A stretch of DNA of 64,000 nucleotides from Eledone cirrhosa (taxonomy: Eukaryota), in the NCBI GenBank assembly GCA_964016885.1, contig OZ024740.1:362142001-362206000 (forward strand), read 5' to 3'. The translations under genes were made by a program, and so were the position numbers. A model generated the notes under the pieces. That model saw only the letters and a program-made list of their open reading frames with translations, made no database searches and was not told the DNA's origin. The stretch's first letter is position 1. Each line of letters opens with the position of its first letter. Below are positions 1 through 62,130 of the stretch, one piece after another.

Positions 1-104
1 TGTTTATTTTAAAGGGCTTTTTATGTATCTAAAAACCGTCAACTATAAGAGCATTTGTTAAGCTATGTGAGTATAAAATTAAAATTATTATATATATTTT
101 TTAG

Positions 105-324
105 GATAATGGAGGCAGTATAGTTTCAAACTATGTTGTTGAAAGAATGGATGTTGCAAAAGGCAAGTGGGAACCATGTAGTCGATTTGTACGTGGTACA
201 ACATATGAAGTGATGGGTTTAACAGAAGGACAGAGCTATAAATTCCGTGTGTCTGCTGAAAATGAATATGGTGTAGGAGAGCCTCTTGAGTCAACACAAC
301 CCATTGTTGCAGCTCATCAATACA
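105..324 (+). CDS. unc-22: twitchin exon, Fn3 (DNGGSIVSNYVVERMD...AAHQY)
   Basis: tttag acceptor, gtaagt donor, Fn3 motif YKFRVSAENEYGVG. Confidence 0.93.
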
Positions 325-55820: not shown

Positions 55821-56557
55821 TATAAGTATGTATACGTACATACATATATGTATACAGATGTACAGTAGTGTGTATATATATATATATACATACATACATG
55901 CACACACATATATATATGTACGTACGGATTTACCGAACATTTATTATAATGCTCGATGTGTTCGGTAAATCCATACGTACATATATATATGTGTGCATGT
56001 ATGTATATATATATACATACTACTGTACGTCTGTATACATATATGTATGTACGTGTACATACTTATATTTAAGTAACAGCCGTACTAAGAGTGAGAAATG
56101 AAATTTCCTTTCATTTTTTCCGTTTATCGTTTTCGGTGTACCCGGCCGATTAACTCACTCGATATGCAGATTAGGCTGCTCAGCCATTAATATGCATAAG
56201 GAAAGTATATACTTTCAGACGTTCAATCATCTGGCAAGAAGGTATACGGTGCTGATGACAGATAATAAGCTTGAAACTAGTACATCGTTCCTTTCTCAGT
56301 GTTGAACAACAGGGCAACGATGGTTGCTAAACACTGTACGGCTTAATACGGGATGTTTGTTTACAAACACACCGAGCATTATAATAAATGTTCGGTAAAT
56401 ACATACGTACATATATGTATGTGTGTGCATTAATGTATATATATACATACTACTGTACGTCTGTATACATATATGTATGTACGTATACATACTTATATTT
56501 AAGTAACAGCCATACTAAGAGTGAGAAATGAAATTTTGTTTCATTTTTTCCGTTTAT
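55821..56557 (+). mobile_element. Penelope-LTR/retrozyme-like element: 430-bp partial tandem plus inverted 5' copy
   Basis: 55959-56127 repeated at 56389-56557; 55821-55955 is an inverted copy; hammerhead inside. Confidence 0.75.
56246..56288 (+). ncRNA. minimal type I hammerhead ribozyme
   Basis: ACGGTG-CTGATGA-cagataataagctt-GAAAC-TA-GTA-CATCGT; palindromic ACTAGT stem III; weak stem II. Confidence 0.7.
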
Positions 56558-59740
<3,183 letters not shown>

Positions 59741-59921
59741 AAATCTACCAAAATATACGGCAGTGTCCAATCCGTATGAAGAACTCAATGTAATCCAAAT
59801 ATCATGAAAAGAAAAGATGCATTCAAAAATTTTTTTAGATGAAAATCACAGGAAAACAGTCAAGATAAATTAATAAAAACAATGAATAAAAAGAAAGAAA
59901 CAGTTCCTTATATTAAAAAAT

Positions 59922-60057
59922 TCATCATTTTACGATCGTTTCTAGGATATATATGTGTGTGGTGGTATGTATATCATATAGATCTATGTAAAAATTTTAC
60001 AAACTATCAGAGGGAATATTCATATCCACACATATATATGCTGTCTTCAGAAATAAT
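59922..60057 (-). ncRNA. type I hammerhead with ~100-nt stem II (left-arm copy)
   Basis: TTATTT-CTGAAGA-...-GAAAC-GATC-GTA-AAATGATGA. Confidence 0.68.
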
Positions 60058-60239
60058 TGTTTCTACTTTAGGCACAAGGCCAGCAATTATCCAGTGCATT
60101 ACTGGTACTTTATTTTATCAACCCCGTAAGGATGAAAGGCAAAGTCAACCTCGGCGGGATTTGAACTCAGATCGTAAAGGGACGTAACTATGCTGGAAAG
60201 CATGGCGTCCGACCCTCTACCAATACTGCCAATCCACCG
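60053..60239 (-). mobile_element. SINE family A inserted in the palindrome left arm
   Basis: The right arm shows the empty site ctgtcttcagaaataatgatatttg. Confidence 0.92.
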
Positions 60240-61033
60240 AATGATATTTGTTTATTGAAAAACACCAACAAAGATTTAATATAATAAGTCTGTTTGGGAA
60301 CAGGTTTTGAATTGACCAATAGTAAGTGGTCAAGTTGATAGAATAGTAGTAGTAGAAATTTAATTTAGGGGTATAGGAATGCAGACTTCAGTTTTGAATG
60401 GAAATAATACTTTGAATGAAAAGATTACTTTGAAAAGAGGTCAAGCCGGTGAAAGTTAATGTTAAAATCGAAGGAGAATAAAATTTTAGGATAAATTTGT
60501 TAGTGAGAAATACCAATCTTATTAAAAACATAAGGAATTTAGATCTATAAAAAGAAATTAAATTAATTGATAGGTACTTATAGGGATAAATTTATATTAA
60601 TTCATATAGATATGATAAATATATATTAATTCATATAGATGTGATGTGATAAATTCTTATTTATCACATTTATATGAATTAATATAAATGTATCCCTATA
60701 AGTATACCTATCAATTAATTTAATTTCTTTTTTTAGATCTAAATTCCTTATGTTTTTAATAAGATTGTTATTTCTCACTAACAAATTTATGTTAATCTCC
60801 TTCGATTTTAACATTAACTTTCACCGGCTTGACCTCTTTTCATCCCAAAGTAATATTTCCATTCAAAGTATTATTTCCATTCAAAACTGAAGTCTGCATT
60901 TCTATACCCCTAAATTAAATTTCTACTACTACTATTCTATCAACTTGACCACTTACTATTGGTCAATTCAAAACCTGTTCCCAAACAGACTTATTATATT
61001 AAATCTTTGTTGGGGTTTTTCAATAAACAAATA

Positions 61034-61170
61034 TCATTATTTCTGAAGACAGCATATATATGTGTAGGTATGTATATTCCCTCTGATAGTTTGTAAAATT
61101 TTTACATAGATCTATATGATATACATACCAACACACACATATTTATCCTAGAAACGATCGTAAAATGAGT
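61034..61170 (+). ncRNA. type I hammerhead with ~100-nt stem II (right-arm copy)
   Basis: TCATTATTT-CTGAAGA(61043-49)-long hairpin-GAAAC(61151-55)-GATC-GTA-AAATGA. Confidence 0.72.
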
Positions 61171-61311
61171 AATTTTTTTAATATAAGGAACTGTTTCTTT
61201 GTTTTTATTCATTGTTTTTATTAATTTATATATATATATATATAAATGAAGTAATTCCATCGGAAAAGTCCAGGAAAAAAGAGTGCTCTATGTAGGCAAC
61301 AGAGCTTAATT

Positions 61312-61638
61312 ATTATTATTATGTAATAAACAACATAAGGCAATAATTCCATTTACCAGTAGTTTCTTAAAAGCAAAAAGTTTTGCTTTCAATCCCCAGA
61401 ATGAAAAAATCCTGGTTTGTTTATTGAATTTGGATTATAAAAACAAAAATGCAATCTATATGAAAGCCTCACTTTCAGCCTCACTTTCATATAGATTGCA
61501 TTTTTGTTTTTATAATCCAAATTCAATAAACAAACCAGGATTTTTTCATTCTGAGGATTGAAAGCAAAACTTTTTGCTTTTAAGAAACCACTGGTAAATG
61601 GAATAATTGCCTTATGTTGTTTATTACATAATAATAAT
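61312..61638. repeat. palindrome with ~155-bp arms and a direct-repeat spacer
   Basis: Near-perfect arms; spacer gcctcactttc x2. Confidence 0.93.
61540..61607 (+). ncRNA. type I hammerhead ribozyme, intact core
   Basis: ATTTTTTCATT-CTGAGGA-TTGAAAGCAAA-loop-TTTGCTTTTAA-GAAAC-CACTG-GTA-AATGGAATAAT. Confidence 0.82.
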
Positions 61639-61781
61639 ATATATATATATATACGTATATATATATATATACATACGTATATATATATATACGTATGTAT
61701 ATATGTATGTATATATATACGTATGTATATATGTATATATATATATATATATACGTATGTATATATATACATATATATGCG

Positions 61782-61817
<36 letters not shown>

Positions 61818-61827
61818 TATGTATATA

Positions 61828-61858
<31 letters not shown>

Positions 61859-61882
61859 GCATATATATATACATACATATTC

Positions 61883-61913
<31 letters not shown>

Positions 61914-61962
61914 TAGATACATATATATACATACATATTCATATATGTATATATATATATAT

Positions 61963-62130
61963 ATAGGAACAAGTAAGACCCCGACGGCTGAGCTCAAGCC
62001 ATTTCGACGAAACGGCTTGAGCTCAGCCGTCGGGGTCTTACTTGTTCCTATTACCCACTCTACTACCTTAAGTATTGAGTACTTTGGTGCGTTATGGTCC
62101 ACCTGGTTCCTTACCACATTTCCTTCGTTA
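61963..62130 (+). mobile_element. hairpin-capped short element family P2
   Basis: taggaacaagtaagaccccgacggctgagctcaagcc / exact inverted arm, then tail. Confidence 0.78.

Follow-up and report, generated by a model that had tools for sequence, protein, structure and literature searches.

A lineage of Penelope-like elements (PLEs) in Eledone cirrhosa carries hammerheads by the thousand, likely self-cutting, with a stem II conserved at about 100 bases. This long-arm hammerhead is a lineage-wide structural variant of the known PLE hammerhead, and it is the variant that is new. The window analysed here is a stretch of 64,000 nucleotides (GenBank assembly GCA_964016885.1, contig OZ024740.1, positions 362,142,001 to 362,206,000 of the forward strand), which is AT-rich (16-47% GC) and rich in microsatellites. 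It contains a large palindrome, which is an ordinary dead PLE insertion and adds nothing new by itself. In the reading that we consider probable, a Hydra-clade element inserted here head to head and 5'-truncated, likely by the folding back of one cDNA, and the copy is now dead, while the stem II of about 100 nt is conserved and covarying and, in active elements, likely still folds into a weak ribozyme assisted by dimerisation or by protein. The inverted layout is normal for such elements and has been published, so the novelty lies in the lineage-wide long stem II and not in the palindrome.

The insertion occupies positions 59741-61229 and is composed of two 5'-truncated PLE 3' ends placed head to head (Table 1). 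The first-pass annotation had described a palindrome at 59865..61229 with a 4-nt loop; the arms and the loop stand, but the left arm is about 125 nt longer and reaches 59741 through a PLE tail. Aligned to each other, the arms show 554 matches and 23 mismatches, gaps excluded, together with several indels, the tail and a SINE with its target duplication. The apex is an 11-bp hairpin around the loop at 60655-60658, and beside it lies a 29-bp tandem duplication that is extra in the left arm. At the same position, the native untranslated region has a 3-bp micro-hairpin, as seen in the alignment with 25 other copies. Both arms have in common a 34-nt and an 8-nt deletion that none of the 25 other copies spanning this stretch has, in a comparison that retained 27 of 58 candidate segments. 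No ORF was found in the window by tblastn, the window having truncated PLE 3' ends only.

Table 1. Features of the inverted PLE insertion, in window coordinates; the A-box and B-box labels on the SINE are presumptive.
Feature	Positions	Strand	Basis or remark
PLE "tail", 3' extension of ~125-130 nt that equals the beginning of the 5' region of the element	59741..59864	-	Absent from right arm; adjoins (GA)n/(TA)n; BLAST of natural, near-complete copy L022 to 60056-59737, 94%
Left hammerhead 3' flank, including stem I 3' strand (59930-59924)	59865..59930	-	Arm alignment and descriptor
Left GAAA box, 2-bp stem III with palindromic GAUC loop, GUA triplet	59931..59942	-	Predicted cut between 59931 and 59930
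Left 101-nt stem II rod	59943..60043	-	-22.9 kcal/mol, z -3.0
Left CUGAAGA box (60050-60044) and 7-bp stem I 5' strand	60044..60057	-	Sequence and descriptor
tRNA-type SINE, A-box-like 60231-60220, B-box-like 60166-60157	60058..60239	-	In stem I 5' strand; ATT target duplication
Left arm, 5'-truncated 3' UTR of Hydra-clade PLE, 29-bp tandem duplication near apex	60240..60654	-	Alignment
4-nt apex loop	60655..60658		Sequence; alignment with 25 other copies
Right arm, 5'-truncated 3' UTR with private 34-nt and 8-nt deletions	60659..61036	+	Copy alignment
Right 6-bp stem I 5' strand and CUGAAGA box (61043-61049)	61037..61049	+	Sequence and descriptor
Right 101-nt stem II rod	61050..61150	+	Folding
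Right GAAA box, stem III with GAUC loop, GUA triplet, stem I 3' strand	61151..61168	+	Predicted cut after 61162
Right-arm 3' end, at the family's short (+67) end, joined to (TA)n	61169..61229	+	Survey of family 3' ends

Hammerhead cores had been proposed near both outer ends of the palindrome, and the sequence of both arms bears them out, with a stem I of 6 bp on the right and 7 bp on the left (9 bp in most family copies), within the 6-9 bp first suggested. The core on the + strand is formed by CTGAAGA at 61043-61049 and GAAACGATCGTA at 61151-61162, and that on the - strand by CTGAAGA at 60050-60044 and GAAACGATCGTA at 59942-59931. In hammerhead numbering, both arms present the type I combination of CUGANGA, GAAA, an A15.1-U16.1 pair and an NUH triplet. 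Stems I, II and III with their covariation and the 3-8 pair likewise agree with type I. The G10.1-C11.1 pair closing stem II is absent, its place being taken by C.A in families A-D, while family E has G-C. The core is kept in 25 of the 27 family segments collected by BLAST, so that other copies carry it, as had been expected.

The inserts between the boxes had been described as self-folding and about 100 nt long, and both are indeed 101 nt and fold into a rod, at -26.4 kcal/mol (right) and -22.9 kcal/mol (left), better than shuffles (z -3.8 and -3.0; as good in 0/200 and 1/200). Folding of the 146-nt motif gives z = -3.0. In order, the right rod is made of a C.A mismatch, 2 bp, a C.C mismatch, two helices of ~12 bp, 3 bp, an internal loop and a 6-bp apical hairpin. 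Across the window, a loose type I hammerhead descriptor returned 6 matches, while 50 block-wise dinucleotide shuffles averaged 0.1. The first-pass annotation foresaw that the long stem II would escape default motif searches, and Rfam gave no hammerhead above the gathering threshold in the window and none at E<=10 in 59700-62100, where a short-stem hammerhead at 61551 was missed too.

The element in the palindrome is a Hydra-clade PLE, as judged by the protein motifs that family copies encode. The right end of the insertion matches a high-copy family (724 candidates, of which 40 were scored, in a 3.0-Gb genome). In larger loci, the motif lies ~730 nt downstream of an ORF with reverse transcriptase (RT) and GIY-YIG domains, and in a tandem copy it lies ~320 nt upstream of an ATG. 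Upstream of the motif, natural copies encode RWK or RWR (RWK in L022, RWR in L028), DKT, YRDD, CxCX5C, YIG, CxxC and CxH. The signature of the Hydra clade as described in PMC8557442 (Craig et al. 2021) is thus present: RWK/DKT, the CxCX5C linker, CxxC and CxH around the endonuclease end, and a single ORF, in L022 and L028, joining the RT to a GIY-YIG endonuclease at the C-terminal end, although in both copies it is broken by stops or frameshifts. Insertion into (TA)n, inverted 5'-truncated copies and a one-sided tail are likewise common to this family and the published clade, as are a 3' hammerhead with a near-palindromic stem III and, often, a mismatch at the stem II base. RT relatives numbered 54 at E<=1e-36; Pfam left three ORF fragments of L028 without a significant match and placed GIY-YIG in a fourth fragment below the cut-off. 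The earlier suggestion of an inverted duplication of a Penelope-type 3' end is upheld. A Neptune-clade PLE would need DKG and a CX2-5CxxC linker, but DKT and CxCX5C were found instead. A non-LTR retrozyme would need units of 150-400 nt in direct tandem, every one bearing a hammerhead, whereas the locus is inverted and the family ORF-linked. Also set aside was L030, of a second family, in which nothing more than a degenerate short motif lies downstream of a Hydra-like endonuclease.

Throughout the genome (G000), 5,759 of the 5,901 exact matches to the core with the GAUC loop have a stem II of 71-135 nt. Exact matches to CTGANGA-N(x)-GAAACGATCGTA numbered 52 for x = 8-39, 90 for x = 40-70, 1,013 for x = 71-98, 3,305 for x = 99-104 and 1,441 for x = 105-135, counts that cover the GAUC-loop type only, include some double or false-core matches and, for x = 71-98, take in U3-A8 copies matched via an incidental CTGATGA. 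Reversed-pattern controls gave 0-1 per spacer bin. Conservation of the core and stem III in the sets collected by pattern is by construction. Other hammerhead families in the same loci have stems II of 14-36 nt. The matches with a 20-nt spacer represent an older short-stem family that also has GAUC as its stem III loop and may serve as an outgroup to the long-arm hammerheads. A long-spacer scan of metagenomes returned at least 120 stretches; among the 79 parsed, out of 80 retrieved, none had a stem I of at least 5 bp or a PLE protein match, so these are chance matches and are silent on other taxa.

Clustering of the motif copies gave several families, among which sister families keep the rod of ~100-107 nt while its basal helices are replaced. 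In family B, a GC-rich helix takes the place of the basal AU helix. Family C, first met via an incidental CTGATGA, has UUGANAA (U3-A8) as its true core, directly after a stem I of 9-11 bp with two compensatory changes. The U3-A8 core with a spacer of 85-125 nt gave 1,343 matches, some overlapping the CUGA searches, against 4 in the control, and stem I is at least 5 bp in 23 of 31 U3-A8 loci. Families B and C lie 0.5-1.3 kb downstream of Hydra endonucleases that are 60-73% identical to that of family A, and the apical motif keeps its sequence in all three of these families. Family E (125 matches, 95-96 nt) has a canonical G-C at the stem II base, and its arms and those of family F (93 matches, ~102 nt) are unrelated in sequence and similar in length. 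An upstream endonuclease was found for 1/30 copies of family E and 0/3 of family D, and an upstream ORF within 1.5 kb for 0/30 of the older family F, whose inserts fold weakly (z<-2 in 5/30, median -0.9). Two family E hammerheads stand in direct tandem 767 nt apart (L378 and L379, G000:C1:76544384 and 76545151), a retrozyme-like arrangement.

The sequences of the sister families show that stems I and II covary, as does the 3-8 core pair. In 13 natural copies, related to each other and preselected for a stem I of at least 4 bp, 93.4% of cells pair, with 21 double-sided changes, and 0/500 shuffles were as high; the number of covarying pairs in these copies was not above shuffles (61/500). When 12 representatives, likewise related and preselected by stem I, were compared under own-family and swapped pairing, the stem II base scored 8.8 vs 5.0 of 12 and stem I 6.6 vs 5.1 of 7, with 0/20,000 permutations as good as own-family pairing. 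The U3-A8 change is a single lineage event. Taken together, the kept rod length, the replaced helices, the stem I compensation and the U3-A8 swap point to selection on the folded ribozyme.

The length of the arm sets these hammerheads apart from the systems to which they are otherwise close. Stem II with its loop measures ~95-107 nt here, whereas the 26 Hydra rows in File S2 of PMC8557442 give about 9-26 nt, with ~22 nt for Hydra-1_oBim, and the longest entries of that table, ~50 nt, are non-Hydra PLE-X rows marked deviant. Compared with these published relatives, stem II is longer by a factor of roughly four or more. Additionally, the unit is ~3.5 kb and the tail ~130 nt here, against <3 kb and 30-40 nt in published Hydra elements (PMC8557442). 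The PLE minimal hammerheads and small variants with a palindromic helix III (Cervera and De la Pena 2014, PMC4209133) have the same type I topology and U3-A8 covariant, a short palindromic stem III predicted to need dimerisation, and dual motifs 100-700 bp apart on opposite strands. However, their "larger than usual" helix II is 6-8 bp, against a multi-segment rod of ~35 bp here, and their G10.1-C11.1 pair is not kept. The Anolis Poseidon element PAc (Frangieh et al. 2024, PMC11167929) also has two discrete 3' ends defining a tail, ATT or AT-rich targets and, in tandems, a hammerhead in the pseudo-LTR upstream of the ORF. It belongs to a different clade, its short hammerhead overlaps the start codon, and its activity has been shown, whereas that of the long-arm hammerheads is predicted. 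The discontinuous mammalian Clec2 hammerhead (reviewed in PMC6765202) is likewise a natural hammerhead with a long insertion that is still able to cleave, but it sits in the 3' UTR of a single gene, with an insertion of several hundred nt and no conserved retroelement rod. Non-LTR retrozymes (PMC7229834; bioRxiv 10.64898/2026.07.22.740005) carry type I hammerheads thought to derive from PLE pseudo-LTRs, in short direct tandem repeats, unlike the inverted locus and ORF-bearing family described here. No report of a stem II of about 100 nt in PLE hammerheads was found in a search of mostly open-access literature. The motif GAAACGATCGT was not found in the supplement text of PMC8557442, in which line breaks could hide it.

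For active elements, the best supported model is a weak type I hammerhead that would acquire an intermolecular stem III via the palindromic ACGAUCGU, whose self-duplex is predicted at -10.0 kcal/mol, while the monomer stem III adds only -0.2 kcal/mol. In a tandem precursor, the hammerhead ~320 nt upstream of the ATG would cut after GUA, and the long arm would be a binding or folding platform for the RT-endonuclease protein of the element. By analogy with the Anolis element, whose hammerhead is protein-assisted in vitro (PMC11167929), this protein is probably needed for cleavage. This arm, for which the platform role is favoured, keeps its apical motif in sequence while its basal helices are swapped. 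The C.A at 10.1-11.1 speaks against fast cleavage, as does a slightly more stable fold of the 142-nt motif, lower than the hammerhead fold by 1.7 kcal/mol, in which a competing pairing closes the core. The G10.1-C11.1 pair is called highly conserved in PMC4209133, and U.U and one C.A occur at the stem II base in the published Hydra/PLE-X table (PMC8557442); the pair is conserved rather than obligatory, with mismatches occurring in natural hammerheads. It could instead be that the long arm inactivated the ribozyme, leaving the core as a relic and the fold kept for template recognition by the RT, as a promoter or as a DNA-level hairpin. The C.A at the stem II base would suit this, as would an apex ~35 bp from the core, which rules out a canonical contact between loops I and II, the scarcity of 5' ends at the cut site (1/30), and the finding that the one PLE tested in vitro could insert without hammerhead cleavage (PMC11167929). 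We nevertheless regard a relic core as unlikely, since without selection on the catalytic core it is hard to account for the double change from C3-G8 to U3-A8, known to keep activity (PMC3088659), together with two compensatory changes in stem I of that lineage.

The inverted layout of the locus is the norm in its family. Among the 200 motifs listed, pairs within 8 kb were head-to-head in 27 cases, tandem in 4 and tail-to-tail in 0, and inverted truncated copies with tails (PMC8557442) and opposite-strand hammerhead pairs (PMC4209133) are in print, so the "twin" ribozymes are incidental. In a survey of 30 "unbiased" copies, chosen by their downstream motif, 3' ends fell mostly at +59..67 or +195..202 after the predicted cut, adjoining (TA)n-type repeats, and only one copy started at the cleavage site. 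The 5' ends of 9/30 of these copies (L203-L232), two of them SINE junctions, cluster 1-14 nt upstream of the CUGA box, equivalent to 61029-61042 in the window, and raw reads show fold-back joints at 61035-61040. In L038 and L047, stem I is preceded on its 5' side by the 3' flank in reverse complement, which is what self-priming of the cDNA through stem I complementarity would produce.

The deletions common to both arms show, at the level of sequence, a common source, and with the start of both arms at the same native micro-hairpin they lead us to infer that one cDNA likely folded back on itself. The endonuclease would nick a (TA)n tract, reverse transcription would begin at the long (+195) end and stop ~390 nt upstream of the core, and the cDNA would self-prime at the 3-bp micro-hairpin and be copied back to the short (+67) end. 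Twin priming, in which both nicked strands prime RT on two RNAs of one source locus, one per 3' start site, with the cDNA 3' ends then joined, is the less probable account. It would explain why the arms end at two different family 3' ends, the private deletions would be common to two transcripts of one locus, and a PLE protein does cleave and extend both strands from two internal start sites (PMC11167929); yet two independent cDNAs would rarely yield arms starting at one native position, with a perfect hairpin on the native 3-bp micro-hairpin as apex. It is very improbable that the 1.36-kb palindrome moves or functions as a unit of its own, with two hammerheads acting together. Both cores are intact, but they lie on opposite strands and the predicted through-transcript folds into one long duplex (-868 kcal/mol) that buries them, so they are not a dimer-cleavage unit; moreover, apex or spacing was in common with 0/19 other loci, and pair spacings vary from 130 to 7,310 nt among the 200 motifs listed. 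Neither hammerhead is expected to work at the palindrome locus. A fold-back chimera of sequencing or assembly is still harder to credit, as the arms differ by 23 substitutions, several indels, the tail and the SINE with its target duplication, and the layout is common in the family and published. No record in four public runs spans the apex, an absence that proves nothing; in these runs, two organisms carry parts of the family, none shown across the whole hammerhead.

The SINE is confined to one arm, as first noted; it is 182 nt long with a 3-nt target duplication, and it is shown to have landed after the palindrome formed, in the stem I 5' strand of the left arm. Exact SINE-hammerhead junctions number 489. 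In other copies, the SINEs inserted at this site differ in target duplication and 5' end and, among the matches listed, scatter among free SINEs in the tree, which makes them independent later insertions and rules out the SINE as a fixed promoter of a master element. Recurrent insertion at the hammerhead site was also seen in family C (L188). The window has five further copies of this SINE, at approximately 2217, 20248, 31642, 34691 and 47757, which are 92-100% identical over the matched part.

Other fold-back structures and hammerhead-like motifs lie in the same window. A second head-to-head palindrome, of another family, occupies 61311-61639 (94%) with its own hammerhead pair, of which the + member is intact (CTGAGGA at 61551, a 26-nt stem II and GAAACCACTGGTA at 61584-61596) and the - member has a mutated core (61399-61354). 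A near-perfect palindrome of 89 bp at 61963-62051, between (TA)n tracts, is probably a short fold-back insertion. Type I hammerhead-like motifs of other families were seen at 56252 (+) and 11561 (-), with stems II of 14 and 31 nt.

PLE hammerheads cleave poorly alone, and one is protein-assisted. Tentatively, and with the odds somewhat against it, a radiation of Hydra-clade Penelope elements may have evolved an active hammerhead subclass with a stem II of ~100 nt and ~35 bp, near-constant in length over unrelated arms, which would recruit the element's own protein to switch on cleavage. Within one genome, cores of the C3-G8 and the U3-A8 type occur along with swapped helices and a large conserved appendix, a natural set of ready-made constructs that could test whether stem II serves in RT-endonuclease binding or in the gating of cleavage. 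There is also a blind spot: several thousand motifs of one animal genome are missed by the Rfam models, and they also fall beyond the core spacer of 7-17 nt by which other PLE clades were judged to lack hammerheads. If long-arm hammerheads are indeed invisible to short-spacer descriptors, some PLE families regarded as "ribozyme-less" or "half-core" may carry them.
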